Origin: Promethearchaeota archaeon
GTDB taxonomy: Archaea > Asgardarchaeota > Lokiarchaeia > Sigyniarchaeales > SOKP01
Direction: 5' to 3'
DNA length: 37,943 nucleotides
Assembly: GCA_048941285.1 (NCBI GenBank)
Contig: JBHLNS010000034.1
Coordinates: 1-37,943, forward strand
Part shown: piece after piece, positions 307 through 34,484 of the stretch
Position numbering within the stretch: position 1 is the stretch's first letter
How the letters are laid out: the number at the start of each line of letters is the position of its first letter
Notes under the pieces: generated by a model
What the model saw: the letters and a program-made list of their open reading frames with translations, nothing else
Told to the model about the DNA's origin: nothing
The model's database searches: none
Translations under genes and position numbers: made by a program

Positions 307-1122
307 TTAACGTCCTATAAATACAGGATCTCTCTTTTCTTTAACTGCTTTCATAAATTCATTGAAATCTTTTGAAGCAAATGTTTTTCTTAATCCTCTA
401 TTTTCTAAATCTAAGGTTCTTTCTAATATATCTCTAAAATATGCATGCATGGTCTTTTTTATCAATTTTAATGATAAAGTGGCACCTTTAGGTGGTATTA
501 GTTTTAAGGCTTGTTCTTTCGTATATGGTATTAAATCTTCTGGTGGTAGAACTTTATTCACAAGATTAAGTTCAAGTGCTTTCTGTGCAGTTATTTTTTC
601 ACCAAAATAAATTATTTCTTTTGCTTTTTGAAAACCGACAAGTAAAGGTAAAAGAAATGAACAAGCGAATTCAGGGATAATCCCATTTCTTGAGAAGAAA
701 AATCCTAACCATGCATCTTCTGACATGTAAATTAAATCAGCACATGCTAAAGGCATTGTAATACCTCCTCCAATAGCCATTCCATTAATGGCAGCTAAAA
801 CTGGTTTAGTAAAGTTCCAAAATTTCATGCATACCTTTTTTTGGGCAATATCCATAAGATCGATTTCAGGATATTTTTTCATTTTTTCCATCATTTCTGG
901 TTTAAAATAACCTCCAGAAGTGAAAGCATTACCTTTAGGATCTCCCGTGATAATAAGTACTTTAGAACTTCTGTCTTTTTCCATATCTTCTAAAACATAA
1001 AATAATTCCAAGAAACTTATGTAAGTTACAGCATTTCTTGCATCCGGTCTCGAAATGGTGGCAGTACATATACCATTATCTTCCTTTTCATAAATAATAT
1101 CTTCAAAATCTTGTATTTGCAT
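307..1122 (-). CDS. Enoyl-CoA hydratase/isomerase (crotonase) family; resembles delta3,delta2-enoyl-CoA isomerase types
   Basis: Motifs RPDARNA, KPVLAAINGMAIGGG and FSRNGIIPEFACS. Lacks the two canonical hydratase Glu but has the later PE Glu seen in ECI2-like isomerases. Confidence 0.9.
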   Translation of the reverse strand: MQIQDFEDIIYEKEDNGICTATISRPDARNAVTYISFLELFYVLEDMEKDRSSKVLIITGDPKGNAFTSGGYFKPEMMEKMKKYPEIDLMDIAQKKVCMKFWNFTKPVLAAINGMAIGGGITMPLACADLIYMSEDAWLGFFFSRNGIIPEFACSFLLPLLVGFQKAKEIIYFGEKITAQKALELNLVNKVLPPEDLIPYTKEQALKLIPPKGATLSLKLIKKTMHAYFRDILERTLDLENRGLRKTFASKDFNEFMKAVKEKRDPVFIGR

Positions 1123-1240: not shown

Positions 1241-2959
1241 TTATTTTTTTTCTTCTCGAAGTGCTTTTTTCAATACTTTACCCACCATAGTTAAAGGAAG
1301 TTCTTCCCGGAAATCCCAGATCTTAGGAACTTCATATTTTGAAAGATTTTCTTCAGCGTATTTTTTAATGCTATCTTTAACTTCTTCGGTTGCTTCAACT
1401 CCTTCTTTAAGCTGAATAACAGCCTTTACAATTTCTGCTCCAGGTCTATCAGGATTAGGTACTCCTATTATAGCGAGAATTTGAATATCAGGATGTTTTG
1501 TCATTACTTCTTCAACATGAACACTGTATACCTTAAAACCACTTACTATAAGCATATCTTTTGTACGGTCTACAATCTTTAAATAGCCATCTTCATCGAA
1601 AACACCAACATCGCCTGTGTGAACATAACCATCTTTGTCAAATGTTGCAGCTGTTGCTTCAGGCTTATTATGATATTGTTTAGCAACTGTAGGACCTTTT
1701 ATCAAAATTTCACCTGGTTGTCCGATCTCTTTTATTTCAGCTCCAGATTCTGTATCTATTAGTTTAATCACTGTATCTGGCCAAGGCAATCCAACAGTTC
1801 CAATTTTTTTCTTACCGTACATTGGATTCGCAGTTATAACAACTGCAGTTTCAGTCATTCCATAAACTTCGACAAATTTGTTTTCCGTATGGAATTGTTT
1901 TTCAAATTCTTTTATTGCCTCTGGTGGAAAGGGTGCCGCACCGCTTACATACACAGAAATATTATCTAATACATCTGATGGGATTTTTTTTGACATTGGA
2001 TTATTTTGAATCATTAGAAACAGAGTTGGGACGTTACCAAAACTACTTGGTTTTTTATCAATTATTTCCTTTATTATATGGTCAGTATCTCTAGGGTTTG
2101 CTATTAAGATTTGTGCTCCTCCTAAATAATTTAAAAAAAGTCCTATAAGGAATCCCGCAACATGAAAAAAGGGAAAAGCGGAGAGAAGTATTTCTTTACC
2201 TTTCTCTCTATTTAGCCAGACATCAAATTGATGAATATTTGCCATTAAATTAGTGTGGAGAATTTCTACACCTTTAGGAAGGCCTGTAGTGCCTCCAGTA
2301 TATTGTATTAAGGCAATATCTTTTTTAGGGTCAATATTGACTTTCTTCAAGTCAATTTCAGTGTCTAATGCTTCTAGAAATGGCATAACAGTTTTCCCTG
2401 GCCAAGGGATAATCTTGCCCTTTGGGATTTTCTTTATTAATTTTCCCATAAATACTTTAAATCCCCCAAAACCCATAAATTCAGAAATATTTGTTGGTAT
2501 TATTACTTTCAAATCATTTAAGCGATCATAAATTTTCGAAAAAACTTTTTCATGAAGTATATCCATAGTAATTAAAAACTTTGCTCCTGAATCTTTCATC
2601 TGATACACCATTTCTTCAGGGCTCAACAATGGGGATAATCCTGTGACAGCTCCCCCTGCTATATATGTAGCATATACAGAAAACAGGTATTGAGGGGAAT
2701 TAGGTAGACAGATTGCAAGTACATCTCCCTTAGTTAACCCATTTTTCTGTAGACATGTTGCTAATTTTTGAGAATATTCTAATATCTCCTTGAATAGGAA
2801 TGTGCGGTCCATAAAATAAAAACCAACTTTATCAGCATATTTAGTCATACTTTGAGTTAGCATAGTTCCTAAATCTTCAGTTGGATAGGTTAAAGTATGA
2901 GGTACATGTTTATCATAGGATTTTAACCAAAAATTTTCATTGATCATTTGTTGACTCAT
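1241..2959 (-). CDS. Long-chain fatty-acid--CoA ligase (AMP-binding, FadD-like)
   Basis: P-loop YTGGTTGLPKG, plus YGMTE, TGD, DRTKD and the GKVLK A10 lysine. Confidence 0.93.
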   Translation of the reverse strand: MSQQMINENFWLKSYDKHVPHTLTYPTEDLGTMLTQSMTKYADKVGFYFMDRTFLFKEILEYSQKLATCLQKNGLTKGDVLAICLPNSPQYLFSVYATYIAGGAVTGLSPLLSPEEMVYQMKDSGAKFLITMDILHEKVFSKIYDRLNDLKVIIPTNISEFMGFGGFKVFMGKLIKKIPKGKIIPWPGKTVMPFLEALDTEIDLKKVNIDPKKDIALIQYTGGTTGLPKGVEILHTNLMANIHQFDVWLNREKGKEILLSAFPFFHVAGFLIGLFLNYLGGAQILIANPRDTDHIIKEIIDKKPSSFGNVPTLFLMIQNNPMSKKIPSDVLDNISVYVSGAAPFPPEAIKEFEKQFHTENKFVEVYGMTETAVVITANPMYGKKKIGTVGLPWPDTVIKLIDTESGAEIKEIGQPGEILIKGPTVAKQYHNKPEATAATFDKDGYVHTGDVGVFDEDGYLKIVDRTKDMLIVSGFKVYSVHVEEVMTKHPDIQILAIIGVPNPDRPGAEIVKAVIQLKEGVEATEEVKDSIKKYAEENLSKYEVPKIWDFREELPLTMVGKVLKKALREEKK

Positions 2960-3182
2960 CTATTTTAATACTTTTTAGATGTTTTTTACATTAAAATTAA
3001 GTGATTAATTATTTACTATCTTCGCGAAAGCTTATAAAAATTGACATTTTTTTTGTGAGAATTAATGATTTGTGTCTCTTTTTTGAATTAAAATGAAAGT
3101 TTGTTAACTCTTTGGTTGAATTTGCATTTTTATTAATGTAAAACTGATTTAATAATGATTTTTAAAAAAAAAGAAGATATAT

Positions 3183-4472
3183 TTAAAGTAATTTAAATAA
3201 TTGCCTTAATGTTAAACTCATAATATATTGCTGAATTTGTCTAGTCCCGCCACCTATTTCTTGTATTCTAGTTACTCCTAATAAGTCGTGCATTAAAGTA
3301 TTATCACAAACACCTGCACCACCCATTAGATTAGCACATTCGTATGCTGCTTTCTGACTTAATTTGGCACTTATAGATTTTAATTGAGCTGCTGTGGCTG
3401 CTAAGGCTAAGCTAAATTCTTTTGGCAGGGTTCCAAACTGTTCAACTTTTTTATCAATCATTTGGCATACGTTTAATGCTGATAAAGTGAGATTCATAGT
3501 TTCAGCCCATAAATCTGATAAGGGAAATCCAACTCCTTGATATTTTAAAATTTCTTGATCAAATTGCTTCCTCATATTCGCATATATAACTGCATGAGAA
3601 ACTGCATTCCAAGCTTCAGATGCATTAAGAAGTACAATTCCTAGCCGTTCAATATTCAATCCTTCAAATAGGTATTCTCTCCCTTGTCCTGGTTTACCTA
3701 AAACATATTCTGGTGGGATTTTTAAATTTGTAAAAGTTTCTTTACCTAAGAAAATCCTAGGTGTCCACGGAATATTAATCCTCTCCACATTCCAACCTTC
3801 CCAAGAGGTATCAACTAAAAATTGACCCATTGTGTTTCCATTATTTTTTTCACTAACAGCATAAATTATTGCCCAATCTGCTTTTGGTCCATTTGTCTGG
3901 TAAATTTTTTCTCCATTCACAATAAAGCTTCCATCTTCTTGTTGATCGCAAGTTGTAAGCATATGAACTGCATCAGAACCTCTTTCAGGCTCTGTGATAC
4001 AAATACACCCATTTTTTTGCCCCGTTACTAATTCTTTTAGTGCTTTTAAGCGAATGTCAATATCTTCATTATGTACAAGTAAAGGATTAATTGCTAAAAC
4101 ATTCGCACCCATCCCCATACAAAGTTGAGGATCAAAAAAATCACAAGCTAAAGTTCTCATAAATTCTGTAGTCATTCCGTGCGGCTCATAATTCAAATTA
4201 AGAAATTCAAATTTATGTAACCTCGTAATTAAACCTTCTTTACCAATCTCAGGTATCCAATCATAAAAATCTTCATTATGAGTTATATTATTGTTTTTTT
4301 CAAACCCAATAAAAAATTTTTGAGCTTTTTTAAGAAAATCAAGTTGTTCTTTCGGTAAATAAGACATCAAGTTAAAATTCAAAAATTTGTAACGATTCTT
4401 CAAAGAAAGTTTTTCAAGGATTTCATCATTAACGCATTGAACTTGTCCTTTTTTATTATCCAATCCAATCAA
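3183..4472 (-). CDS. Acyl-CoA dehydrogenase with IVD/LCAD-type catalytic Glu placement
   Basis: Motifs ITEPERGSD, NGEKIYQTNG, GLNIERL, RKQFDQEI, MGGAG and EIGGGT. The start may be the TTG at 4463, 9 nt after AGGAG. Confidence 0.92.
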   Translation of the reverse strand: MIGLDNKKGQVQCVNDEILEKLSLKNRYKFLNFNLMSYLPKEQLDFLKKAQKFFIGFEKNNNITHNEDFYDWIPEIGKEGLITRLHKFEFLNLNYEPHGMTTEFMRTLACDFFDPQLCMGMGANVLAINPLLVHNEDIDIRLKALKELVTGQKNGCICITEPERGSDAVHMLTTCDQQEDGSFIVNGEKIYQTNGPKADWAIIYAVSEKNNGNTMGQFLVDTSWEGWNVERINIPWTPRIFLGKETFTNLKIPPEYVLGKPGQGREYLFEGLNIERLGIVLLNASEAWNAVSHAVIYANMRKQFDQEILKYQGVGFPLSDLWAETMNLTLSALNVCQMIDKKVEQFGTLPKEFSLALAATAAQLKSISAKLSQKAAYECANLMGGAGVCDNTLMHDLLGVTRIQEIGGGTRQIQQYIMSLTLRQLFKLL

Positions 4473-4708
4473 CTCCTAAAATTTAAATTTATTCTTAAAA
4501 TGGTAATGTTGAATTTTTTAAATATTCTTAGAAAAAAAAAGGTTATTTATATAGGAAACCTAGTTTAGAAATTTTTACTCAAACCAAATATGGATAAAAT
4601 AAATTCACTGATGTGTCAGAAATAAAGAGAATTACATGTTTTCAAAATTATTTAAATGTTTAAATCATAATAATAATCATATTAAAATTAATATAAAAGA
4701 AAATTAAG

Positions 4709-5173
4709 ATGAGTGAAGAGAAAATAGTTGTTGCGAATAAGGGGCTGATAAGGGCAGAATTTGCATTTTGGGTGGGTCAATATATGGATAGATTCTATGA
4801 TGCTCTTGAAAATAAGAAAATTATTGGAAATAGATGCCCCAAGTGCGGAGATGTCTTTGTTCCACCAAGAAAAATATGTGGAAAGTGTAATGTAACGATT
4901 CCTTTAGATCAAAACTGGGTAGATTTACCAGATTCAGGAATACTTAAAAATTATACAATTACATACTACAAAATAAATGATAGATCAAGTCGAAAGGTCA
5001 AGAAACCTCAAATTATAGGGATGGTGCAAATAGATGGGAGCAATACAGTAATAATCTATCGGTTATTGGATATTGAACCAGAAGAAGTGACCATGGGAAT
5101 GAAAGTGAAGATCCTATGGGAAGAAAAAACTAAGGGAGACCCTTCTGATATAAAGGGTTTCATTAGAGTATAG
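4709..5173 (+). CDS. DUF35 family Zn-ribbon/OB-fold acyl-CoA-binding protein
   Basis: CPKCG...PPRKICGKC zinc ribbon followed by an OB fold ending MGMKVKILW; adjacent to thiolase-fold genes. Confidence 0.92.
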   Translation: MSEEKIVVANKGLIRAEFAFWVGQYMDRFYDALENKKIIGNRCPKCGDVFVPPRKICGKCNVTIPLDQNWVDLPDSGILKNYTITYYKINDRSSRKVKKPQIIGMVQIDGSNTVIIYRLLDIEPEEVTMGMKVKILWEEKTKGDPSDIKGFIRV

Positions 5174-5188
5174 GGGGTGAAAAACGAG

Positions 5189-6331
5189 ATGCAAAAAGTA
5201 GCAATAGTAGGATATAATCAAGTTAAATTATATTCTGATGCAAATTATGGAAGATATGAAATGGTATTTGAAGCTGTAAGAGGAGCTTTAGATAGTGCTG
5301 GGTTAAAAAAGAAAGATATAACAACAGTCATTTCTGCTACAAATGATTACTATGATGGAAGGACTATCTCAAATTCATTAACTGTAGAACCAGGAGGAGG
5401 TTATCTTGTAGATGAATCAAAAGTAGAAATGGATGGAGCACATGCCGTTTTATACGGATTAATGCGTATTTTATCAGGAAATCATAAACTAGCAGTTGTA
5501 TGGGGCGGAAGTATGGTATCTTCTTTTCCTTATCATTCTACTCGTTTATATGAAACGGATCCAACATGGGAACGACCAAATACGTATGTTAATGATGTTA
5601 CATCTGCTGGTTTTCAAATGAGAGCATACATGGAAAAATATGGAGTATCCACTGAAGAGATAGCAGAAGTAGCTGTAAAAAACAGAAAAAATGCTGCTAA
5701 AAACCCTTTAGCATTAGAAGAATCACAAAATCCTAATATAACTGTAAATGAAGTATTAGAATCTGAGTTATATTCTGATCCAGTAACAGATTTAATGGTA
5801 GCTCAACCCTGTGATGGTATGGCTGCGCTATTACTAGCTCCTGAAAAACAAGCAAAAAAAATTACTGACAATCCTGTTTGGATTACTGGTGTAGGTTTTA
5901 ATCAAGAAACTTATTATCTAGGTGATCGAGATTTAACTACAAGTAGCTCTATGGATTTGGCTAGTAAAATGGCGTTTAAAGCTGCTGGAATAAAGGATCC
6001 AAAAAATCAAATTGATTTAGCTGAATTATTTGAAGCATTTGCACATGAAGAACTAATTTTTACTGAAGCCTTAGGATTTGCTGAGAAAGGTAAAGGTTCT
6101 GAGTTAAACACAGAAATTAAAGGAGATTTCCCTATTAATCCTTCTGGAGGGGCTTTAGGAGGAAATCCACCGTGTGCTACAGGTTTAATAAGGATTATCG
6201 AAGCTGCCAAACAATTAAAAGGGGAAGCAAAAGCATATCAAATTAAAGATGCGAAAAGAGCGATTGCTTCAGGTCAAATTGGAATGTGCGCTCAGAATAA
6301 TATATTATATGTATTGGAGGGAGCTGAATAA
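5189..6331 (+). CDS. Thiolase-fold protein lacking the catalytic Cys; Ltp4-like aldolase subunit
   Basis: Motifs NDYYDGRTIS, ESKVEMDGAHA, ELFEAFAHEE, NPSGGALGGNP and AQNN match my recollection of mycobacterial Ltp4. ATG at 5189 follows SD GGGGTGA; the ORF track starts at GTG 5177. Confidence 0.85.
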   Translation: MQKVAIVGYNQVKLYSDANYGRYEMVFEAVRGALDSAGLKKKDITTVISATNDYYDGRTISNSLTVEPGGGYLVDESKVEMDGAHAVLYGLMRILSGNHKLAVVWGGSMVSSFPYHSTRLYETDPTWERPNTYVNDVTSAGFQMRAYMEKYGVSTEEIAEVAVKNRKNAAKNPLALEESQNPNITVNEVLESELYSDPVTDLMVAQPCDGMAALLLAPEKQAKKITDNPVWITGVGFNQETYYLGDRDLTTSSSMDLASKMAFKAAGIKDPKNQIDLAELFEAFAHEELIFTEALGFAEKGKGSELNTEIKGDFPINPSGGALGGNPPCATGLIRIIEAAKQLKGEAKAYQIKDAKRAIASGQIGMCAQNNILYVLEGAE

Positions 6332-6333
6332 AA

Positions 6334-7581
6334 ATGGGAAGACAAGTATGTATAGCAAGCGCAGGTTTTAGTGAACATGCCTCAAAGCGCTCTGATGTAA
6401 GCATGCCAGAATTGATAAGCGAAGCAATCGAAGATTGTTTAAAAAAAGTACCTAGTATTGAAATAAATGATATTGATGCGTTTGTGAATGGAAATATGCC
6501 CGCATTTGAAGGATCAAACATTCCAGAATTATGGATGACTGATTGGATGGGAGCTAGGAATAAACCTTTAATGAGAGTAACAACAGGAGGCACTACAGGA
6601 GGATCTGTAGCTATAGCGGGATATTATACTGTCACTGCAGAGTTACAAGGCATTGATACAGTATTAGCAATTGCTTTTGAACAACAAAGCCAAGGTGACA
6701 CAGCTACAGGACTTGCTAGTGTTGGATATGGCGAAATTTCAGTATTAAACTCATTAGGAATTCCTTATGAACAGCTAACACTCCTTTTATCTGGTGGAGC
6801 TGCGATAGGAATTGCCTCTTATCAAGCGGTAAATTACATGCGAAAAAGTAAAATAACCGAAGAAGATTTAGCTAGAGTTGTAGTTCAGAATAGACACAAT
6901 GCCGCAAAAACATGGTGGGCTCACCTTAAGATGCCTGACCTTACAATTGAAGAAGTGCTTGATACTCCTTATATTTCATATCCTTTAAGATATGGAATGG
7001 TTTGCCCTGCCTCCGATGGAGCGTGTGCGATATTGTTTACAACTGAGGAGAAAGCTAAAGATCTGTGTGATATTCCTGTATATGTTAATGGTGTAGGCAG
7101 TGTTGCAAATGAAACTGCTCTTATTGGCTATGATGGCAGTGGTTCAGCACAATTAGATCTTTCTGAGCAACTTGGAGCTCAAATAACTTCTGATTTGGCA
7201 TTTAAACAAGCAGGTATTTCTTTTCCAAGGAAGGAAATAGATTATGCCGAAGTATACGCCCCATTTCCTAATCAAGAACTTATGTGGGTTGAAAAATTGG
7301 GTCTATTCGAGGAAAATACAGCTTCAGAAATGTATGAAACCGGAGTAACAGCCTTAAATGGTGAATTACCAATATGTTGCTCTGGAGGTGTTAATTCCAC
7401 TAATGCGATAGGAGCATCAGCAATGGAAAGACCCGCAGTTGCTGCCTTGCAGATAATGGGAAAGGCTAGTAATCAAGTTCCAAAGACTGTACATACATCA
7501 CTAGGGCATGGTTGGGGTGGATATGTTAATTTTGTTACCATGATGGTAATGGCTGATGAACCAGCTAGAAAACTTAAATAA
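6334..7581 (+). CDS. Thiolase-fold protein lacking the catalytic Cys; Ltp3-like aldolase subunit
   Basis: Motifs KRSDVSMPELISEAI, FEGSNIPELWMTDWMGARNKPLMRVTTGG, AFEQQS, CPASDGA, AEVYAPF, NAIGAS and GHGWGG. Closely resembles Ltp3 as recalled. SD GGAGG upstream. Confidence 0.87.
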   Translation: MGRQVCIASAGFSEHASKRSDVSMPELISEAIEDCLKKVPSIEINDIDAFVNGNMPAFEGSNIPELWMTDWMGARNKPLMRVTTGGTTGGSVAIAGYYTVTAELQGIDTVLAIAFEQQSQGDTATGLASVGYGEISVLNSLGIPYEQLTLLLSGGAAIGIASYQAVNYMRKSKITEEDLARVVVQNRHNAAKTWWAHLKMPDLTIEEVLDTPYISYPLRYGMVCPASDGACAILFTTEEKAKDLCDIPVYVNGVGSVANETALIGYDGSGSAQLDLSEQLGAQITSDLAFKQAGISFPRKEIDYAEVYAPFPNQELMWVEKLGLFEENTASEMYETGVTALNGELPICCSGGVNSTNAIGASAMERPAVAALQIMGKASNQVPKTVHTSLGHGWGGYVNFVTMMVMADEPARKLK

Positions 7582-7600
7582 AAAATGGAGGTAATGTAAA

Positions 7601-8131
7601 ATGTCTAAAAGAACGTTAAGAAAGTCAATGGAATATATTAAAAAGGATTATGTAAGGACGCGAACAATGCCAGCAAATTGGTATTTATCTAATTATAACT
7701 ACAAATTTAATATTACTCACATGAAACCCTTCCTAGAAAAATTAAAACAAAAAAAACTAGTAGGACTCCAATGTTCAAGCTGTAATAGAATATTTTTTCC
7801 TCCTAGACTTGTATGTGGTAAATGTATGGTTAAACCTGATCGCTGGGTTGATTTACGTGAAACAGGGAAAGTTGCTTCATATACTATTACTTATTTAAAG
7901 GATCCCGAAACTGGAGAAGTTTTGGAACGTCCAATAGTTTGTGCTCAATTAGATGGAGCAGATACATCATATCCAGCACAATTAGCTCCTAATGTTGAAT
8001 TTAAAGATGCTTACATAGGAATGCCAATAAGAGTGCACTGGGCAGAAAAAATACAGGGGGGATTGATGGACATTGAATATTATGATCCAATTGAAGATGA
8101 TGCCAAAGATTTAGGGTTAAGGAAGGATTAA
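7601..8131 (+). CDS. DUF35 family Zn-ribbon/OB-fold protein
   Basis: CSSCN..FFPPRLVCGKC, QLDGADT and IGMPIRVHW; SD GGAGGT upstream. Confidence 0.92.
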   Translation: MSKRTLRKSMEYIKKDYVRTRTMPANWYLSNYNYKFNITHMKPFLEKLKQKKLVGLQCSSCNRIFFPPRLVCGKCMVKPDRWVDLRETGKVASYTITYLKDPETGEVLERPIVCAQLDGADTSYPAQLAPNVEFKDAYIGMPIRVHWAEKIQGGLMDIEYYDPIEDDAKDLGLRKD

Positions 8132-8133
8132 AA

Positions 8134-8153
8134 TTTTTTTTTTTTCTTTATTT
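8134..8153 (+). terminator. Oligo-T archaeal terminator of the DUF35-thiolase operon
   Basis: T12 run (8134-8145) immediately after the stop codon, in a convergent intergenic gap. Confidence 0.5.
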
Positions 8154-8187: not shown

Positions 8188-9255
8188 TCATTTATTATTT
8201 AATAATTTACCCAGAGTATCACCTATTTTTTGCACAGAAAACTGAATATCATCTTCATTTATACCATAATGAGTTACAAATCTAATTTTTTCTTTACTAA
8301 TATTGAAAGATAATATACCTTCTTTTCCAAGCTGATTTACTATTTTAAATATCCGAGTTTTTTGAAGAAGTTCAATAATAACAATATTGGTCTCTGGTTT
8401 ATTTATTTTTATTGGTAAATCGTAAGATTGAATACCTTCAGCAAGTAACTTAGCGTTTTTATGATCCTCCGCAAGTCTATTAATCCAATTTGTTTCAAGA
8501 GCAATTAATCCAAAAGATGCAACTATCCCAGCTTGCCGCATTCCCCCGCCAAGCATTTTCCGATATTTTCTAGCTGCGGTAATGAATTCTTTTGAACCCG
8601 CAACAATTGAACCAACAGGGCATGATAAACCTTTCGATAAACAAAACATGATACTATCGACATGTTTAGTGAATTCTGTAACAGAAATTCCAAGACTAAC
8701 TGCTGCATTGAATATCCTGGCTCCATCCAAGTGTAATTTTAAATTATTGTTGTCTGAGAAATTTCTCATGTCTTTAAATTTTACGGGGGGTATAATAACT
8801 CCTCCATGGTAATTATGAGTATTTTCTACAGAAAATAGGGTTGTAAATGGCTCATGGATATCCTCCTTATCACGAATAAATGATTGAAGTTGACCAAATG
8901 AGGGAATACCATTATTTGAGGGGTAAGTTCTTATCATTAATCCTCCAATTCGAGCTGCACTCCCTACTTCGTTTTTGTAAATGTGACTTAATTCTTCTAA
9001 AAGAATTTCATCACCAGGCTTAGTTTGAGAAAGAAGTGCCACTAAATTGCCTTGTGTTCCAGAAGTCACAAATAATGCTGCTTCCTTGCCAATAATTCTA
9101 GCTGCTTTTTCTTCCAATTCATTTACAGTTGGATCTTCCCCTTCGACATCATCTCCGAGATCAGAATTTTTTAATAACCTAAGCATTTCCCACATTTCTG
9201 GGCTTGGTTTAGTTACTGTATCAGAACGTAAATCAATGATCCTCAATTTCATCAT
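8188..9255 (-). CDS. ltaE: Low-specificity L-threonine aldolase (PLP-dependent)
   Basis: Motifs IDLRSDTVT, SGTQGN, ENTHN, HLDGARIFNA, CLSKGL (PLP Lys) and GGGMRQAG. Confidence 0.93.
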   Translation of the reverse strand: MMKLRIIDLRSDTVTKPSPEMWEMLRLLKNSDLGDDVEGEDPTVNELEEKAARIIGKEAALFVTSGTQGNLVALLSQTKPGDEILLEELSHIYKNEVGSAARIGGLMIRTYPSNNGIPSFGQLQSFIRDKEDIHEPFTTLFSVENTHNYHGGVIIPPVKFKDMRNFSDNNNLKLHLDGARIFNAAVSLGISVTEFTKHVDSIMFCLSKGLSCPVGSIVAGSKEFITAARKYRKMLGGGMRQAGIVASFGLIALETNWINRLAEDHKNAKLLAEGIQSYDLPIKINKPETNIVIIELLQKTRIFKIVNQLGKEGILSFNISKEKIRFVTHYGINEDDIQFSVQKIGDTLGKLLNNK

Positions 9256-9369: not shown

Positions 9370-10101
9370 TCATAATCCAGGGATCGCTGTTCGCTTGTAT
9401 AAAATATCTAAAAGTTTTGAGATAAAAGTAATTATAATTAAAAAAATAATACCCACAATAACATATGTAAGAATTATCGCAAATGTAGCAAAACTTATAA
9501 CATACGCTCGAGCAAAGAGGTCTAAAACTGCTATAAAATATACCGCAACGGTATATTTCGGAAGATATACTGCTTCATTTGACCAAGCAGGAATAGCACG
9601 ACGCAAAGCTTGTGGTAAAATCACACGCCTAATACCACCAAAACGAGACATCCCTAAAGATTGGGCTGCAATTAATTGCTCTGTTCCAATAGACATAATA
9701 GCCCCCCGAAGATATTCTGCTTGGTAAGCTGAACTATTAAGACCTAATGCGATAATAGCAATGAAAGTTCGATTGCTTATCAAACTGACAGAAGCCCGAG
9801 CTGTGATGTTAATACTTAGGCTCCACGGGATTTCTATTCCAATTGGAAGATTGTATAATAATAACAATTGTGCGAGCAAAGGTGTACCACGAATAATCTC
9901 GATATAACCCGTTGCAATACGCGAAAGAATTATTCCACCATACTGACGGAGAATCGCAAAAATAAGACCCAGGAAAAAACCTATTAAAAGTGCCCATAAG
10001 TATAACCACAATGTCATGATTAAACCTGAGAGAAGTAAATCCCAATTTTCCAAAATAGCTAGCAATTGTTCAAATATGTTCAGCTGGGTTTGAAATATCA
10101 T
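9370..10101 (-). CDS. Polar amino-acid ABC transporter permease (HisM/GlnP family)
   Basis: YIEIIRGTPLLAQL, SAYQAEYLRGAI and VILPQALR; SD AGGAGGT upstream. Confidence 0.92.
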   Translation of the reverse strand: MIFQTQLNIFEQLLAILENWDLLLSGLIMTLWLYLWALLIGFFLGLIFAILRQYGGIILSRIATGYIEIIRGTPLLAQLLLLYNLPIGIEIPWSLSINITARASVSLISNRTFIAIIALGLNSSAYQAEYLRGAIMSIGTEQLIAAQSLGMSRFGGIRRVILPQALRRAIPAWSNEAVYLPKYTVAVYFIAVLDLFARAYVISFATFAIILTYVIVGIIFLIIITFISKLLDILYKRTAIPGL

Positions 10102-10103
10102 TA

Positions 10104-10877
10104 TTATACCTCCTTCTTTGACATTTTTAAAAGTTCTTCATGACTTCCATACAACATTTCAAGCTGCTTGAGAAACGTTTTGACTCGTTCAGATTTGGGT
10201 GATTCAAAGAAATGTTTTGGGGTTCCACGTTCTATAATTATACCATCTCCAAGAAAAATCATTTCCGATGCTACAGCTCTAGCAAATCCCATCTCGTGAG
10301 TTACAACTACCATTGTTGTGCCTGATTTTGCAATCTGTAACATTACTTGAAGTACTTCACCAATCAATTCTGGATCTAATGCAGAAGTCGGTTCATCAAA
10401 CAAGATTACATCTGGTTCCATAGCCAAAGCACGCGCTATACCTACACGTTGCTGTTGACCACCTGATAATTCGGCAGGATAATGATCTGCCCATTTTGTC
10501 ATTTTCACACTTTTTAATGTCTCATAAGCTTTTTCTCGGGCTTCTTCCTTTGACAAACCTTTAACACGGTGTAGTCCAATACTGACATTATCTATTGCTT
10601 TAAGGTGGGCAAATAAATTAAAATGCTGGAAAACCATTCCAATTCTAGCTCGCATTGCATTAATATTGACATCTGGATCCATAATATTCTGTCCACGGAG
10701 GTATACTTCACCTTTTTCTGGAGGATTAAGCATATTAATGCACCGAAGTAGCGTACTTTTACCAGAGCCACTTGGTCCAAAAACAACTTTAACTTCCCCT
10801 TCATTTACATCAAAAGAAACACCTTTAAGAACCTCAAGATCCTCATATGATTTCCATAAATCAACAACTCTTAACAC
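10104..10877 (-). CDS. Polar amino-acid ABC transporter ATP-binding protein (GlnQ family)
   Basis: [29 protein letters not shown] and VTHEMGFA. The start may be an ATA at 10889 (see findings). Confidence 0.95.
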
Positions 10878-10891
10878 AGGTAGACTTATGT

Positions 10892-11968
10892 TTAGCCACC
10901 TCCCATTCCTAATTTTTTTAGTTTTTTTGTTTGTCGTTCACCAATTAATTTTATAATAGGATAAGTAAAGAGAAAATAAATAATTGCAGCAACACCCAAT
11001 GATAAAGAAAAAAGCTCTTTATAACTTACAGATACGTAATAAGCTGCCCTAGTCATTTCGATGACTCCAACCTCATACGCAAAGGCTGTATCCTTGAGGA
11101 CCACTGCATATTCGTTAGACCAGCTCGGTATTGCTAGGCGTAATGCTTGGGGCATCAAAATATGTCGAAAAGCCTGAAATCTATTCATCCCTATTGTATA
11201 AGCAGCATCCATTTGTCCAGGGCTCACGGATAACATAGCACCACGGAAAATTTGAGATTGATAAGCTCCACTACGGAGTGCTAATGCAAAAACTATACTC
11301 TCAAGTGGTGGCAGAATAGTTCCGTATGCAAAGAGATAGATTAAAACCAGAAGTGGAACTCCCCGAAATAACTTCTCATAACCAGTTGCTAACCAACGAA
11401 GTTCTACACCACCATAAACTCGCATAATTGCTAAAATGATACCAATAAAAAATCCCCAAATTAACCCTAAAGCAGTGAGAACTAAAGTATTGGTTAATCC
11501 AACTATGATAATAAATAAAAAAATGTAAGGTGGGATTGAAATAAAAATAATTAATACAGCTAAAATAAGAGCAGATATGAAAAGAATTAGTTGAATTTTG
11601 ATATTAAAATCAAATGCTTCTCCCAATTTTTTTTTATAAAATTTAGCAATTACTAGAGAACCAATAAAAACATCAAGAACAATGTAAATTTCAATATAAA
11701 TGAAAATTCGTATTAGAAGAACTATATTATCAATAAAATAATAATTTAGCAAAAAATTAGTCACTATATTTACTAAAAACAAGATCAAATTTACTATAAA
11801 GGCTGGTTTGATTGATATATCCCACTCTTTCCTAAAATCTGTTTTCTTTTTCTTTGCACATCGTTTCATATAGAAAATTCCAATTACAAATGTGATAATT
11901 GAGGCAAAAATCCATTGGTTATTTTCTATAACTAAAGCGATATATTCTAAACTTATTTGAAAAAACAT
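10892..11968 (-). CDS. Polar amino-acid ABC transporter permease with an extra multi-TM insertion near the N-terminus
   Basis: The C-terminal ~200 aa carry [33 protein letters not shown] and LKDT. ATG at 11968 follows SD GGGTGA; the ORF track starts at GTG 11977. Confidence 0.88.
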
Positions 11969-12141
11969 GATTATCACCCACTAAGGAAATATATTTTTTA
12001 TTATTTGGGATATCTACAAGTTTATGATAAATTACTTATTTAATAGACTTTAAAATCAAATGAATTGATATAGAGATGTAAGCTTATTTTGAGCGAGAGA
12101 TGAATTTAAAAAAAAAAGTTTTATAAATTTTAAACTTTCAA

Positions 12142-12948
12142 TTATGTTGCTGTAATATTTAACCATTTTTCGACATTAGCATACATTCTTCCGTCTATAA
12201 AGCTGTCAAGAATAACGTTATTAATCTCATAAAGTAGTTCTGGTTCCCCGTATCTGGTCCATAATACAAATTCTTCAGTCCCAGTTTGAAGTATCATTTT
12301 GAGACCGTATGTTTTTGACCATACAAGAAAAACTGGTTCATCAATATATGCTGCTTCAACTCCTCCACCAATCAAATCTAGCATTAATGCATCAACCGTT
12401 ATATGTGTTGTGATAGTTGTGACTCCAGCAGCAACTAAATCGTCATAAAGTGTAGTACCGGCTTGTACACCTGTATCAGTACCGTCAAGATCCGATAAAC
12501 TTGAAATTGTAAGTGATGAAGAATTTTTTACGATAACAGCTTGACCTACTGTAATGTAGGTACTAGAAGCGGCAAGGTAAGTAGAGCGATTTACAGTATA
12601 TGTCATTGCTGCGGCCACCATATCAACCTTACCTGCGGCACATGCAGCAATTAATCCACCAAAATTTCTGTCACTCCATTGAATTGTGACACCAATTTCA
12701 TCCGCAATCCAACTACATAAATCCACGTCAAAACCTATAATTTCAGGTGGAATAGCAGAAGTGTTCACATACTCAAATGGCGCATAATCTGCACTTGTTC
12801 CTATAATAATATAACCTCTATTTTTAATAATCGATAATAAAGATGGACCTCGTCCACCCCCAATAAAAGGGGAAGGTATAAACCAGCCTCCTAGCAGCCC
12901 TACTGCTAGACAAACCACCATTCCAATTACGGCCATTTCTCTTTTCAT
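12142..12948 (-). CDS. Amino-acid ABC transporter substrate-binding protein (SBP family 3), N-terminally membrane anchored
   Basis: GTSADYAPFEY, GFDVDL, GKVDMVAAAMT and GVQAGTT; hydrophobic N-terminus; SD GAGGT upstream. Confidence 0.92.
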   Translation of the reverse strand: MKREMAVIGMVVCLAVGLLGGWFIPSPFIGGGRGPSLLSIIKNRGYIIIGTSADYAPFEYVNTSAIPPEIIGFDVDLCSWIADEIGVTIQWSDRNFGGLIAACAAGKVDMVAAAMTYTVNRSTYLAASSTYITVGQAVIVKNSSSLTISSLSDLDGTDTGVQAGTTLYDDLVAAGVTTITTHITVDALMLDLIGGGVEAAYIDEPVFLVWSKTYGLKMILQTGTEEFVLWTRYGEPELLYEINNVILDSFIDGRMYANVEKWLNITAT

Positions 12949-16985: not shown

Positions 16986-17357
16986 TTATTTAATTTTTAG
17001 TACAATAGTAATTGCTCTTGTAAGACGGATGACATCCATTACTTTTCCTTTTTCAACAGTTATATGTTCCCTTGAGATTGCATGAGTAAAATCTCCTTTT
17101 CCCTTACAAATATTCATGAGAGCATCAGATTGTCCAGACAATACGATTATAGCATCTGACTTTATACCTTCAGTCAGTATAGCCTTACGATTTTTAATTT
17201 CTAAGAAAAAAGGATCTTCATTATTCAGTTTAAATTGAAAAGACATTTCCCAATCTACGTCTTTTCCTGCAATATTAGTTACAAAAACTTCTTGAGCTTT
17301 TGGAATCGTATTTAATTTTTGTATAATCTTGCTTAAGTTTTCTTTAGTCTTTCCCAT
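16986..17357 (-). CDS. SCP2 sterol/lipid-binding domain protein
   Basis: 123 aa with the pattern FQFKL..PFFLEIKNRKAILTEG..DAIIVLSG..DALMNICKGKGDFTHAISREHITVEKG; coupled to DUF35 by a TAATG overlap. Confidence 0.75.
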   Translation of the reverse strand: MGKTKENLSKIIQKLNTIPKAQEVFVTNIAGKDVDWEMSFQFKLNNEDPFFLEIKNRKAILTEGIKSDAIIVLSGQSDALMNICKGKGDFTHAISREHITVEKGKVMDVIRLTRAITIVLKIK

Positions 17358-17854
17358 TATTGTCTACCTCCTTCAAATTCAGGTTTTGATATCCAACTTT
17401 TATATTCATCCTCTGGAACAAAGAAGAAATCAGTCATTTTACCTTCTCTTTCTCTGTTAAATACTGCTCTAACCTTTTTACCCTTCTTTATTTTAGAAGG
17501 AACTAAATTCTCAGAGAATATTCCTTGAAGTAAAGCAGTTTCCGCATTATCAAGTTTTATAAATCCTATTCCATAAGGTATTGCTTTGATAAAAGCTGAA
17601 GTAGTATACCACACTATGGTGCTAACCTCTATTGTTCCAGTCTGTTTAAGTTCTACCCAATCTGCAGTAGTGTAACAATCAGAACAATTAATTCTTGGAG
17701 GCATCCATGTTTTACCACATTTGGTACATTTTGTACCCAATAACTTCTTATTCTTCATTAACTCAATAAAAAATTTGGATTGCCCTCCCATTGTATATTT
17801 ATAGTTGATCTTTATTATATCTCTTATTTGATGGTTCTGAAATTCTTCATTCAT
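17357..17854 (-). CDS. DUF35 family Zn-ribbon/OB-fold protein
   Basis: CTKCG..WMPPRINCSDC, IKLDNAET and KGKKVRAVF; ATGA overlap with the upstream thiolase. Confidence 0.92.
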   Translation of the reverse strand: MNEEFQNHQIRDIIKINYKYTMGGQSKFFIELMKNKKLLGTKCTKCGKTWMPPRINCSDCYTTADWVELKQTGTIEVSTIVWYTTSAFIKAIPYGIGFIKLDNAETALLQGIFSENLVPSKIKKGKKVRAVFNREREGKMTDFFFVPEDEYKSWISKPEFEGGRQ

Positions 17855-19107
17855 AATTTTTTTCGTCCCTCCTCATTTGTCATTACAATAACAGCCGCAT
17901 ATGCTGCTCCAGGCCCTCCGATTGAATGTGAAATTGCTCGACCTTTTTCTATTGTAACTTGATGATCTCCTGCTTCAACCCTTAATTGAAGAGCAGCTTC
18001 TCCTGTACTCATTATCCCCGTTGCACCTACTGCATGCCCACAACCTATTAATCCTCCAGAAGGACAACAGGGTAATTCTCCTTCTAACCATGGACCCTCA
18101 CCTTGCTTTTCAAATGAACTTTCAATCCATGGACCTCCTTCCCCAAAAGGAACAAAACCAAGTTCTTCATAACTAATAACTTCTTGTCCACTAAATGCAT
18201 CGTGTAACTCTGCTAAGTCTATTTGTGTTTTTATTTTATTATAGTCTAATCCTGCCATTTTATAAGCTGCTTTTGCCGCAAAAATGTTTGAGTATAAGCG
18301 CCCCATATCTTCTCTATTTCCTATAAAGCAATCGGTATTTGCAGCAGCTACACCAGTGATCCAAATTGGCTTTTCTACCTTTAATTCTTTTACTTTTTCC
18401 TCACTTGCTAGAATCAGCGCAGCAGATGCTTCAGAATATAAACAACAATCTAATAATTTGAAAGGGTAACAAATTATTCTCGAATTCATGACATCCTCAA
18501 CAGTTATCTTCATTGGAGATTGTGCTTTTGGATTTTTGATAGCATTTTCGTGGTTTTTAACGCTCACATAGGCCATTTGCTCTTCAGTGGGATTACCAAA
18601 TTCTTCATAATGCGCATTGACCATCGATACATATGAACTTGCTGCCATCATTCCCATGGGATATTCATAAGTCATATCAGCGGAATAAGCAATAGCATTT
18701 AAAACTTCTGGGGTCGTCACACCCGTTTGTTCGTCATAACAATCATTGCATTTTTCAAGACCTATACAGAGGCATAAATCAGATAATCCCGATGCAACTT
18801 CTGCATATGCCATTCGAACTGTATATCCACCAGTAGCTCCACCTGAGGCAATTCTAGTACCTGGTTTATTGTTCATACCTAGATATGAATTAGTAAAAAT
18901 ATCTGGCATAAATTGACGTTCAAAAAGTTCATTATATATCCCATAAACAGTTGATTGAAGATCTTTATGCGTGATTTCAGCCCCATTTTTATTGGCATCT
19001 TCTAGTGCTATTTTTGTAGCATCAAAAGCTAATTCAAAGTAAGTCCTATCAAGATACCTTGCTTTAAAGGGTGTTATCCCTATACCTATTATAGCAACTT
19101 TTCGCAT
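17851..19107 (-). CDS. SCP2-type thiolase-fold protein with the nucleophile Cys replaced by Gly
   Basis: RIASGGATGG at the usual xxCASG site, plus KNHENAIKNPKAQ, LLDCC, ELHDAF and GHAVGATG; SD AGGAG upstream. Confidence 0.9.
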   Translation of the reverse strand: MRKVAIIGIGITPFKARYLDRTYFELAFDATKIALEDANKNGAEITHKDLQSTVYGIYNELFERQFMPDIFTNSYLGMNNKPGTRIASGGATGGYTVRMAYAEVASGLSDLCLCIGLEKCNDCYDEQTGVTTPEVLNAIAYSADMTYEYPMGMMAASSYVSMVNAHYEEFGNPTEEQMAYVSVKNHENAIKNPKAQSPMKITVEDVMNSRIICYPFKLLDCCLYSEASAALILASEEKVKELKVEKPIWITGVAAANTDCFIGNREDMGRLYSNIFAAKAAYKMAGLDYNKIKTQIDLAELHDAFSGQEVISYEELGFVPFGEGGPWIESSFEKQGEGPWLEGELPCCPSGGLIGCGHAVGATGIMSTGEAALQLRVEAGDHQVTIEKGRAISHSIGGPGAAYAAVIVMTNEEGRKKL

Positions 19108-21547: not shown

Positions 21548-22582
21548 GTGAAAAAAAAGTTGATTAAAACAAGAATAACTGAAAATTTTGGGATAAAATA
21601 TCCTATTATTAGTGCTCCGATGGGCCCTTTCTATACGACAAAATTAGCAATTGCAGTTTCAGAAGCAGGTGGATTAGGAGTTGTAAGTCATGCAACATTG
21701 CGAGGTAAAAATTCTGTTAAGGATTTTAAGGAACAATTGGACTATTTTGTAGAGCATTCTGATAAACCTTTTGGTATAAATGTGCGTGTTGCTCGAATCC
21801 AGACTGATCACCGGGTTTTATTAAGAAAAATTCCACAATGGCGTAAAGAGAACCCTAAATTAAGAGAGCAATTAGTTTACGCCTTAACCAGTGCTGGAGG
21901 TCCTCGAGTTGCAGGAAAAATGTGGAAGGAAAAAGCACCCGATATGTATCATTTTCATGTTGGTCCCGCTTTATGGCTTGTTGATAAAATAGTAGAATCA
22001 GGATGTGATGGGATAGTTGCTACAGGAACCGAAGGTGGTGGTCATCAAAGTTATGAAGAAGTTACAACATTGGTATTAATACAACAAGTTGCTCGAAAAT
22101 ATCCCGATAAAATGTTAGTTGGATGTGGAGGATTTGCAACCCCAGAGGGCATAGCTGCAGGATTAGCCATGGGTGCTGATGCTATTGCTATGGGTACACG
22201 ATTTATTGCTTCTACTGAGAGCGAATTTCATCAAAATTATAAAAATCTTATTCCTCCTGCTACAGCTCAAGATACTATGCTTACAACTGGAGGATTTGGC
22301 CCAATTAGATTATTGAAGAATAAATTTTGTTTAGAACATGGTAAAGTGATGACCAGAGATGAAAAAATATCTCAAGAATTAGCCTATGATATGGATGAAT
22401 ATCTTTCAGACCTAATTGCATATGAGCTAGTCTATACCAAGGGGGATACTGTAGATGGAGCAGTCCCGGTAGGCCAGACTGTTGGGTTAATTGATTCAAT
22501 TTTGGATGTTGAGGATATTGTTTCAGGATTCACAAATAAAGCAGAAAAAATATTGAAGAATTTATGTTCAAGAATTTCATAA
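21548..22582 (+). CDS. Nitronate monooxygenase / FabK-like enoyl-thioester reductase family flavoprotein
   Basis: YPIISAPM, AVSEAGGLG, KPFGIN, EGGGH, GADAIAMGTRF and GQTVGLI. Confidence 0.9.
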   Translation: MKKKLIKTRITENFGIKYPIISAPMGPFYTTKLAIAVSEAGGLGVVSHATLRGKNSVKDFKEQLDYFVEHSDKPFGINVRVARIQTDHRVLLRKIPQWRKENPKLREQLVYALTSAGGPRVAGKMWKEKAPDMYHFHVGPALWLVDKIVESGCDGIVATGTEGGGHQSYEEVTTLVLIQQVARKYPDKMLVGCGGFATPEGIAAGLAMGADAIAMGTRFIASTESEFHQNYKNLIPPATAQDTMLTTGGFGPIRLLKNKFCLEHGKVMTRDEKISQELAYDMDEYLSDLIAYELVYTKGDTVDGAVPVGQTVGLIDSILDVEDIVSGFTNKAEKILKNLCSRIS

Positions 22583-28338: not shown

Positions 28339-28358
28339 AAAAATACAAAGAAAATATA

Positions 28359-34449: not shown

Positions 34450-34484
34450 AAGAATATGAAAAAATTAAAGAGGAGTAATTAAAA

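Follow-up and report, generated by a model that had tools for sequence, protein, structure and literature searches.

The 37,943-nucleotide contig JBHLNS010000034.1 of a Promethearchaeota archaeon (assembly GCA_048941285.1), referred to below over its whole length as the window, carries on its plus strand, between positions 4709 and 8131, a cassette of four genes in the order DUF35, thiolase fold, thiolase fold, DUF35. The question that this locus raises is what chemistry a pair of thiolase-like proteins may perform when neither of them has the nucleophilic cysteine. The original prediction, made from the sequence, held that the cassette is the same machine as the actinobacterial Ltp4/Ltp3 system and that it cleaves branched hydroxyacyl-CoAs. 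Our preferred reading, to which we give a probability of roughly 55%, is that the cassette encodes a retro-aldolase, a heterodimer with DUF35 caps and a single active site, whose substrates would be non-oxidizable 3-hydroxyacyl-CoAs. The four genes are the following:

4709..5173, plus strand: DUF35a (P0001, 154 aa), a CxxC...CxxC zinc ribbon plus OB fold (Pfam zf-ChsH2 9.5e-07, OB_ChsH2_C 2.1e-09)
5177..6331, plus strand: Ltp4-like thiolase-fold protein (P0002, 384 aa counted from GTG 5177), the presumed catalytically silent partner subunit
6334..7581, plus strand: Ltp3-like thiolase-fold protein (P0003, 415 aa), the presumed catalytic subunit
7601..8131, plus strand: DUF35b (P0004, 176 aa), built like DUF35a from a CxxC...CxxC zinc ribbon and an OB fold but extended at the N-terminus by about 40 residues

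The tight coupling of two thiolase-fold genes flanked by two DUF35 genes, as first described, agrees with the open reading frame (ORF) map, in which the gaps between consecutive ORFs are 3, 2 and 19 nt, and with Pfam, which finds Thiolase_N and Thiolase_C_1 in both middle ORFs and zf-ChsH2 and OB_ChsH2_C (DUF35) in the outer ones. For P0004 the zinc ribbon scores 3.1e-08, and the OB_ChsH2_C match (4.6e-05, 23.7 bits) lies under the cut-off of 27.1.

Translations and alignments also bear out that neither thiolase fold has the nucleophile Cys, that the HDCF motif reads FEAF in one and YAPF in the other, and that Asn stands at the GHP position. P0003 contains the motifs RVTTGGTTGG, YAPF and TNAIG. 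Alignment with 7yvy places its Gly86 at the position of the nucleophile, and its AEVYAPF segment aligns without gaps with AEVHDCF of the Trypanosoma brucei SCP2-thiolase 4bi9, which puts Tyr308 at the HDCF His; in the alignment to solved thiolases Pro310 replaces the HDCF Cys (the residue changed in the C337A mutant of the T. brucei enzyme, 4bia) and Asn357 replaces the GHP His. P0002, with the motifs ESKVEMDG, FEAF and GGNP, has relative to the solved thiolases a deletion of three residues at the Cys loop, which removes the nucleophile, together with Phe at the HDCF His, Ala at the HDCF Cys and Asn at the GHP His. Because both proteins have lost all four thiolase residues (nucleophile Cys, HDCF His, HDCF Cys and GHP His), neither is expected to be a thiolase, and judging from these residues the P0002/P0003 complex is most likely not an acetyl-CoA acetyltransferase. 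The prediction that automatic annotation would nevertheless call it so was correct, as close homologues are labeled 'acetyl-CoA C-acetyltransferase' by JGI and 'hypothetical protein' by NCBI.

The residues that took the place of the thiolase machinery in P0003 are strictly kept. Gly86 is unchanged in 77/77 cassette homologues, and Tyr308, Asn357, Cys224, His197, Arg366, Gln373 and Gln381 are unchanged in 78/78; in an alignment of 26 sequences with 28-82% identity to P0003, G86, E306, Y308, N357, R366, Q373 and Q381 are invariant. Across the 78 cassette copies the motif reads Y-[AS]-P-F, with A in 28, S in 45 and other residues in the remainder at position 309, and P in 76 and G in two at position 310. 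The corresponding site of P0002 is degenerate, its HDCF-His position reading F55 S10 H4 Y3 T3 and its GHP-His position N63 D7 H3 K1 Y1 among 75 homologues, while E80, K82, E84, D86, H290 and E292 are invariant among the same sequences. A clean signature thus marks the family: one subunit carries Gly86, Tyr308 and Asn357, and the equivalent site of its partner is degenerate. Identity to P0003 is 82-93% among its 120 best homologues, and those with a named source come from metagenome-assembled genomes (MAGs) of Promethearchaeota, Thorarchaeota or Hodarchaeota.

This signature acquires a meaning from the steroid side-chain aldolases. The catalytic-base Tyr of TcLtp2 (Y294DHF) and of CtSal (Y302DCY) occupies the HDCF-equivalent motif, CtSal has Gly at the position of the nucleophile, and TbSLP, with YDCF at this motif and a CtSal-like catalytic architecture, has been proposed by its authors to be a possible aldolase (PMC12329534). 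P0003 has the Gly and the Tyr in common with CtSal, though neither the Asp that follows nor the second catalytic residue; of the two subunits only P0003 carries the Tyr found in Ltp2, Sal and SLP, P0002 having Phe.

The four genes are inherited together. We scanned one genome per species with a four-sequence alignment as the query and obtained 79 related loci, the 80 kept loci being weighted to close Asgard relatives (68/79), with the wider Ltp3-like radiation lying outside this genomic context. The 68 close loci are 79-96% identical to P0003 and comprise 54 titled as Asgard lineages, 13 as 'uncultured archaeon' and one as Nanopelagicaceae; the other 11 are 40-50% identical and include three from Archaeoglobi, two from Dehalococcoidia and four from Actinomycetota/Acidimicrobiia MAGs, so that the purely archaeal framing first given to the cassette does not hold. 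The order DUF35-Ltp4-like-Ltp3-like-DUF35 is found in 70 loci and the same four genes are reordered in three (L068, L077 and L078), while six of the 79 are truncated by contig ends; all 73 complete loci therefore carry the full set. Both DUF35 classes are present in each of these 73, and DUF35a and DUF35b are distinct paralogue classes across loci. The locus groupings, judged by eye, are alike in the Ltp3-like and Ltp4-like parts of the tree. The Nanopelagicaceae locus (L035, DATKTW010000129.1, titled 'Candidatus Nanopelagicaceae bacterium') has a cassette 81% identical to P0003 and the same neighbors as Asgard loci, and is probably a mis-binned Asgard contig.

How close is this cassette to the actinobacterial Ltp3/Ltp4 proteins? 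The NCBIfam models PRK08313 (NF006180, cut-off 514 bits) and PRK07937 ('lipid-transfer protein', NF005924, cut-off 419 bits) are those that we take to be ltp3 and ltp4, respectively, consistent with the model name and with the EchA19 neighbor described below. P0003 reaches 355.3 bits on PRK08313, under the cut-off, although no other model comes within about 170 bits of this score. P0002 reaches 202.4 bits on PRK07937, also under the cut-off, and scores slightly higher on PRK06065, PRK06064 and PRK06066 (225-213 bits), again under each of their cut-offs. By comparison, true PRK08313 members (P0131 and proteins of the loci L080 and L081) score 704-734 bits. The latter two are actinomycete plasmid records, from Tsukamurella (L080) and Streptomyces clavuligerus (L081), that were found with P0222; their proteins score 734 and 713 bits on PRK08313 and 593 and 550 bits on PRK07937, respectively. 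In both, a ligase is followed by an 'OB-fold' gene and two thiolase genes, and hmmsearch finds two DUF35 domains in the OB-fold gene, of which the N-terminal domain lacks the zinc-binding Cys. The claim that Ltp3 and Ltp4 adjoin a double-DUF35 gene was therefore sound, and in L080 the neighboring crotonase passes the EchA19 equivalog model (428 bits vs a cut-off of 400). The motifs first given for the actinobacterial proteins fared unevenly: ESHVEMDAAWA, AEIYVPF and SSNPIGAS are exact in L080, PLIRVHTAG reads PLLRVHTAG, and GGALAANP is absent as written, the sequences being GGALVGNP in L080 and GGALAAHP in L081. Three further actinobacterial proteins of Ltp3 type (P0163, P0222 and P0260) look frameshifted or chimeric and match PRK08313 only in part, P0222 matching actinomycete DNA in two pieces of 46-47% of its length; these three were left out of the trees.

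The search for representatives returned 2936 proteins at E<=0.001, 913 at <=1e-10 and 68 at <=1e-30, and a second radiation with a shortened ES.VE.DG loop was seen among them. A tree of 141 rows (IQ-TREE quick mode, LG+G4, SH-like approximate likelihood ratio test, SH-aLRT) places P0003 inside an Ltp3-like clade of 58 tips (SH-aLRT 99) and P0002 inside an Ltp4-like clade of 54 tips (SH-aLRT 98), and both clades include the actinomycete double-DUF35-ltp4-ltp3 clusters. Within them the cassette subclades are supported at 99 each, and P0002 lies inside a 29-tip subclade with actinomycete proteins of the Ltp4 position (SH-aLRT 97). In this tree the cassette and actinomycete Ltp3 proteins appear as sisters with a support of only 18, and in a careful mixture-model tree of 45 rows other lineages come between them, the cassette clade being supported at 100/100. 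Exclusive sisterhood of the two clades, a grouping named from the first tree before the careful one was made, was rejected by the approximately unbiased (AU) test (p = 0.007). From the tree placement and this test it follows that our proteins are cousins of Ltp3 and Ltp4 in the same two families; neither P0002 nor P0003 is an orthologue of the sterol Ltp3 or Ltp4 or belongs to their subfamilies. The idea of one and the same machine thus stands as regards the clades (SH-aLRT 99 and 98) and falls as regards orthology, on the scores and the AU test. The Gly/Tyr/Asn signature occurs in 51/141 rows of the tree set and marks a large radiation; only 9/141 rows carry Cys at the nucleophile column.

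Several features are shared with the actinobacterial system (Rv3521-Rv3523). Both have adjacent thiolase-fold genes, ltp4-like first and ltp3-like second, the motifs ES[KH]VEMD, R-V-x-T-[AG]-G without Cys, E-x-Y-x-P-F and N-[PA]-IGAS, two DUF35 domains per pair, and a ligase and a crotonase nearby. P0003 has the Ltp3 signature of Gly or Ala-Gly at the Cys, Tyr at the HDCF His and Asn at the GHP His, and P0002 has the short Cys-less loop ES[KH]VEMD[GA] in a gene directly upstream of the Ltp3-type gene. In contrast to the single two-domain gene of L080 and L081, the DUF35 domains here are separate flanking genes, both with four zinc-binding Cys; moreover, the cassette falls under the NCBIfam cut-offs and in a clade of its own, and its hosts are anaerobic archaea and bacteria, with no sterol genes seen. 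As to the actinobacterial pair itself, Ltp3-Ltp4 figures in reviews as a heteromeric aldol-lyase that removes C24 branches, a view based on the genetics of Wilbrink 2012 (PMC6678751, PMC10832528, PMC8708139).

The steroid side-chain aldolases Ltp2-ChsH2(DUF35) (6ok1) and Sal-Shy(DUF35) (9myr) share with the cassette the SCP2-type thiolase fold, the DUF35 cap, the missing nucleophile Cys (Gly in Sal, as in P0003) and a Tyr first in the HDCF-equivalent motif, with fold matches at TM-scores of about 0.76-0.81. They are homodimers with DUF35 fused to a hydratase, whereas here a heterodimer with free-standing DUF35 is proposed; neither the Asp of YD nor the further catalytic residue of those enzymes, Tyr344 in TcLtp2 and Cys304 in CtSal, is conserved in the cassette, and the sequence relation to 6ok1 is distant (E = 2.8e-09 for P0002 and 3.1e-15 for P0003). 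The closest solved structures in both sequence and fold are 4yzo (ST0096 of Sulfolobus tokodaii) and the archaeal DUF35-type thiolases 7yvy and 6esq. Of these, 4yzo also has no nucleophile Cys (Ser in the alignment) but, unlike P0003, keeps the HD and GHP histidines, and the papers found to mention it give no function; 7yvy has the nucleophile Cys as well as HD and GHP, and 6esq is named acetoacetyl-CoA thiolase. For the DUF35 proteins, the best PDB sequence matches of P0001 are 3irb (DUF35), 6esq_E and 6ok1_B ChsH2(DUF35), and P0004 matches 3irb, 6esq_E, 5m3k_B PhlB and 6ok1_B.

Structure prediction gave confident models. The AlphaFold2 models have a mean predicted local distance difference test (pLDDT) score of 88.1 and a predicted TM-score of 0.91 for P0003 and a pLDDT of 85.3 for P0002, whose monomer model defines the invariant DGRTIS loop (residues 58-77) poorly. 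Foldseek returned only DUF35-type and SCP2-type thiolase folds, led by 4yzo, 7yvy and 6et9, with Sal-Shy 9myr 10th for P0002 and Ltp2 6ok1 30th for both proteins; neither these searches nor the PDB sequence searches returned a structure of Ltp3/Ltp4 type. The prediction of the P0002 and P0003 complex scored 0.94, against 0.00 for the best of three controls, and passed a mark that is reached by 58/80 solved complexes and 2/110 mismatched pairs, counts that are only rough with custom alignments. The runs agree in at least 91% of contacts with a partner pLDDT of at least 85, and the predicted interface joins residues 56-85 of P0002, its invariant loops, to residues 74-86 of P0003, the former nucleophile loop. 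Since thiolase dimers are themselves among the solved complexes, this pass may merely reflect likeness to them.

Taking these results together, we propose that the four gene products form one enzyme complex, in which the Ltp4-like and Ltp3-like proteins would assemble into a thiolase-type heterodimer with each subunit capped by its own DUF35 zinc-ribbon/OB protein. The complex would cleave the C2-C3 bond of a 3-hydroxyacyl-CoA in a retro-aldol reaction: Tyr308 of the Ltp3-like subunit may remove the proton of the 3-hydroxyl, and breakage of the bond would give an aldehyde or ketone and the enolate of a short acyl-CoA, which could be stabilized near Asn357 and backbone amides and then protonated. 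The Ltp4-like subunit would be a structural partner whose invariant loops pack on the active-site loop of the Ltp3-like subunit. In steroid side-chain heteromers of the ChsE4-ChsE5 and ChsH1-ChsH2 type an inert partner makes room for bulky substrates, and the logic of a single active site in the cassette would, by analogy, mirror theirs. An enzyme of this kind might be needed where the 3-hydroxyl cannot be oxidized to a ketone, or where the substrate is bulky, as in beta-branched chains; in this genome the neighboring ligase, acyl-CoA dehydrogenase and hydratase could make such a substrate.

Several observations weigh against the retro-aldolase. The aldolase role of Ltp3 and Ltp4 is a genetic inference (PMC6678751), and an enzyme assay of an Ltp3/Ltp4-type protein does not appear in the literature consulted. 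In the active site, Ltp2, Sal and SLP have an Asp directly after the catalytic Tyr (YD), where the cassette homologues of P0003 have Ala or Ser; the position of the catalytic Cys304 of CtSal is Pro310, so that no second catalytic residue can be named; and Asn357 is matched to Tyr344 of TcLtp2 or Gln352 of CtSal by spacing only. The controls of the complex prediction were unrelated proteins and no homodimers. As regards genomic context, an SDR gene, potentially a hydroxyacyl-CoA dehydrogenase, lies upstream of the cassette in four loci, and in most Asgard loci the flanks are unrelated to acyl-CoA metabolism (SepF, LSM, amylase, nitroreductase, PAP2, two HGD-D subunits).

These objections leave room for other accounts of the same conserved site. 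The invariance of Tyr308, Asn357 and Gly86 bespeaks a conserved site and does not fix its reaction, so that the complex might act on an acyl-CoA through another Cys-independent chemistry, such as the synthetic aldol condensation of a ketone or aldehyde with acetyl-CoA, the decarboxylation of a malonyl-type CoA or the hydrolysis of a thioester. Aldol reactions are reversible, catabolic neighbors are missing from most Asgard loci, and the related TbSLP shows only a very slow malonyl-CoA decarboxylation and has no known substrate (PMC12329534). We nevertheless consider such a reaction somewhat unlikely, as the sole functional data for the wider clade concern catabolism, namely C24-branch removal (PMC6678751), CtSal does not decarboxylate malonyl-CoA (PMC12329534), and the flanking acyl-CoA genes, where present (ligases or CoA-transferases, acyl-CoA dehydrogenases and hydratases), suit degradation. 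That both thiolase folds are pseudoenzymes, the complex being a non-catalytic scaffold or an acyl-CoA- or lipid-binding module that organizes other enzymes, would accord with the disappearance of all canonical catalytic residues from both subunits and with the recruitment of other enzymes by DUF35/ketothiolase cores, for instance in archaeal HMG-CoA synthase and fatty-acid synthase assemblies (bioRxiv 10.1101/2024.07.05.601840; PMC12329534). It is quite improbable in view of the replacement residues, all three of which hold across 28-82% identity in addition to the cassette copies (G86 in 77/77, Y308 and N357 in 78/78), and of the match of Tyr308 to a proven catalytic base in relatives; furthermore, in the known scaffolding cases the thiolase itself is active.

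The two remaining accounts would restore a thiolase or a known DUF35 complex. In the former, an unconventional residue would act as the nucleophile, the obvious candidate being Cys224 of the Ltp3-like subunit, which is invariant in 78/78 copies and Cys in 45/51 Ltp3-like rows. The same column holds Cys in three and Ser in four of the seven canonical Cys-bearing thiolases, and Cys in 8/9 rows of a group with Gly at the nucleophile and HD and His retained; Cys in this column is therefore a family-wide feature and no replacement nucleophile, and Cys224 was rejected in this role. Apart from Cys224 no Cys of P0003 is conserved, and the acid/base Cys and the GHP His are lost as well, which makes a real thiolase very improbable; an equivalent catalytic Cys, which according to the original prediction would have spoken against it, was thus not found in P0003. 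As for a BbsAB-type or mevalonate-type complex, it would share the architecture of DUF35 and SCP2-type thiolase fold, and the searches by sequence and by fold matched 7pxp, 6esq and 6et9, among others. BbsAB-type and mevalonate-type thiolases need a nucleophile Cys, and it is gone here. This identity is moreover already contradicted by the family scores, with 93.3 and 66.5 bits on NCBIfam BbsB (cut-off 750), 19.1 and 21.0 bits on BbsA (cut-off 250) and 161.4 and 103.6 bits on AcCoTHIOL_METTL (cut-off 600), and Pfam matched no HMG-CoA synthase family to either of the middle ORFs; we regard it as extremely improbable.

If the retro-aldolase is correct, its substrate is a further question. A sterol is unlikely, because no putative steroid-degrading Archaea were detected when 8,277 genomes of bacteria, archaea and fungi were surveyed (PMC4810484), and steroid genes did not turn up in our analysis. 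A reasonable guess would be acyl chains that are beta-branched or bulky. More specifically, the cassette might be the key C-C lyase of an O2- and carboxylation-independent degradation of beta-branched acyl-CoAs in Asgard archaea, Archaeoglobi and Dehalococcoidia, especially of 3-methyl-branched isoprenoid acids from archaeal lipids or phytol, in which a 3-hydroxy-3-alkylacyl-CoA would be cut directly to a ketone and acetyl-CoA. We hold this route to be unlikely in so specific a form; were it true, the cassette would be the first enzyme for isoprenoid-chain recycling in archaea, and the sterol-branch Ltp3/Ltp4 would be a late specialization of a much older family.

Within a wide radiation common to anaerobic archaea and bacteria, the sterol-branch enzymes appear to be a single twig. 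As had been supposed, no characterized archaeal example came to light: no paper on archaeal Ltp3/Ltp4-like cassettes was found in literature searches whose coverage omits most subscription journals. What we describe is a conserved Asgard operon that goes misannotated as 'acetyl-CoA C-acetyltransferase' or 'hypothetical protein', and its clade supplies many sequences from non-pathogens, 79-96% identical to one another, for biochemistry and structural work. There is also a consequence for the debate on archaeal lipids. Ketothiolase/DUF35 pairs were counted at 3.8 per genome in Asgard archaea, in 67% of 62 genomes, and their abundance was taken to indicate a capacity for fatty-acid synthesis (bioRxiv 10.1101/2024.07.05.601840). 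The Saci_1121/1120 pair of the proposed archaeal fatty-acid synthase has a thiolase-fold gene beside a DUF35 gene, as here, but pairs of this type are described as active ketothiolases for Claisen condensation, whereas all three DUF35-adjacent thiolase-fold proteins of the window (P0002, P0003 and P0125, described below) have no nucleophile Cys. Counts of ketothiolase/DUF35 pairs therefore overstate ketothiolase capacity; such pairs in Asgard genomes cannot simply be tallied as ketothiolases, which bears on inferences about archaeal fatty-acid synthesis and the lipid divide.

Fused and duplicated forms add to the picture of the module. P0196 (731 aa) provides an independent link between the parts: in this natural fusion a thiolase fold of the Gly/Tyr/Asn type precedes two DUF35 domains, the second with a degenerate zinc ribbon. 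In a search for fused forms, P0004 gave one longer match, a 329-aa double DUF35, and P0003 gave no longer form, both being weak evidence; among close relatives this search turned up no fusion of a hydratase with DUF35 like those of ChsH2 and Shy. In some Hodarchaeota and other Asgard archaea (L012, at 1750-5199, and also L036 and L055) a second module lies directly upstream of the cassette, consisting of a PRK06066-like protein of the Ltp4-like clade, a PRK06065-like protein with Gly/YDP/Asn and two DUF35 genes; two Cys-less thiolase folds with two DUF35 are therefore a recurring unit.

Around the cassette, the window contains the following features:

4473..4708, no strand: AT-rich divergent intergenic region between the acyl-CoA dehydrogenase gene (minus) and the cassette (plus), the presumed promoter region
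8134..8145 (approximate), plus strand: run of about 12 T just 3' of the DUF35b stop, terminator-like on inspection
3183..4472, minus strand: acyl-CoA dehydrogenase-family gene divergent from the cassette (Pfam Acyl-CoA_dh_M and Acyl-CoA_dh_1), a possible upstream step
1241..2959, minus strand: AMP-forming acyl-CoA ligase of long-chain type (Pfam AMP-binding), a possible activation step
307..1122, minus strand: crotonase-type enoyl-CoA hydratase (Pfam ECH_1 7.5e-46), a possible supplier of the 3-hydroxyacyl-CoA substrate

Sequences resembling Shine-Dalgarno sites (GGAGG/GGGGGTG) lie 5' of each of the three downstream cassette ORFs, and the GTG at 5177 sits within such a sequence, GGGGGTGA. A start at ATG 5189 would give MQKVAIVGY, and several Asgard homologues begin there (MQKV/MEKV/MDKV), while one (L048) retains the longer N-terminus; on these comparisons ATG 5189 seems the likelier start of P0002. 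The block of hydratase, ligase and acyl-CoA dehydrogenase seen in the window recurs in 9-11 loci: an orthologue of the dehydrogenase adjoins the cassette in 11/79, so that the linkage holds in a subset of genomes only, a ligase homologue (at least 55% identity) is found in 11/79 and a hydratase like that at 307..1122 in 9/79. The best NCBIfam models for the ligase, all of long-chain-fatty-acid-CoA ligase, are under their cut-offs. In general, the acyl-CoA genes found beside the cassette encode activating enzymes (ligases or CoA-transferases), acyl-CoA dehydrogenases and hydratases. Among the non-Asgard loci, L078 has a CoA-transferase and three acyl-CoA dehydrogenases, L072 a MaoC hydratase, an acyl-CoA dehydrogenase, a ligase and a second cassette, and L071 and L073 have ligases as neighbors; BKACE and SDR flank the cassette in some loci.

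Convergent to the cassette is a gene for a pyridoxal phosphate (PLP)-dependent aldolase of the GntG family (8188-9255, minus strand; 383 bits vs a cut-off of 230), which also resembles low-specificity threonine aldolase and is followed by an amino-acid-type ABC transporter (9370-12948). This GntG-type gene neighbors the cassette, together with the amino-acid ABC transporter, in 25/79 loci. As a candidate functional partner it is tentative, being convergently transcribed and missing from most loci.

A third thiolase-fold gene of the window, P0125 (17851-19107, minus strand), has Gly at the nucleophile position, keeps HDAF and GHA, and falls in a separate Gly/HD/His clade near the canonical thiolases. 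It is followed, within the region 16986-19107, by a DUF35 gene of its own (P0126, 17357-17854) and then by an ORF of 123 aa, for which the homologue cluster gives a weak SCP2 match (5.1e-05); this SCP2-like ORF recurs in 8/79 loci and stands beside DUF35 and thiolase-fold genes wherever the contig is long enough. Other genes of acyl-CoA type are scattered through the window, namely an NMO/FabK-like enoyl reductase, a second long-chain-type acyl-CoA ligase and two tandem crotonases (21548-22582, 22665-24470 and 27562-29135), and genes of the NMO family are also found close to the cassette in L070 and L074 and in L080 from Tsukamurella. The window further contains genes unrelated to the cassette, for an Eco57I-type N6-adenine DNA methylase (25365-27449), a peptidase C25 homologue (30022-31782) and the epsilon and beta subunits of CODH/ACS (33910-35921).

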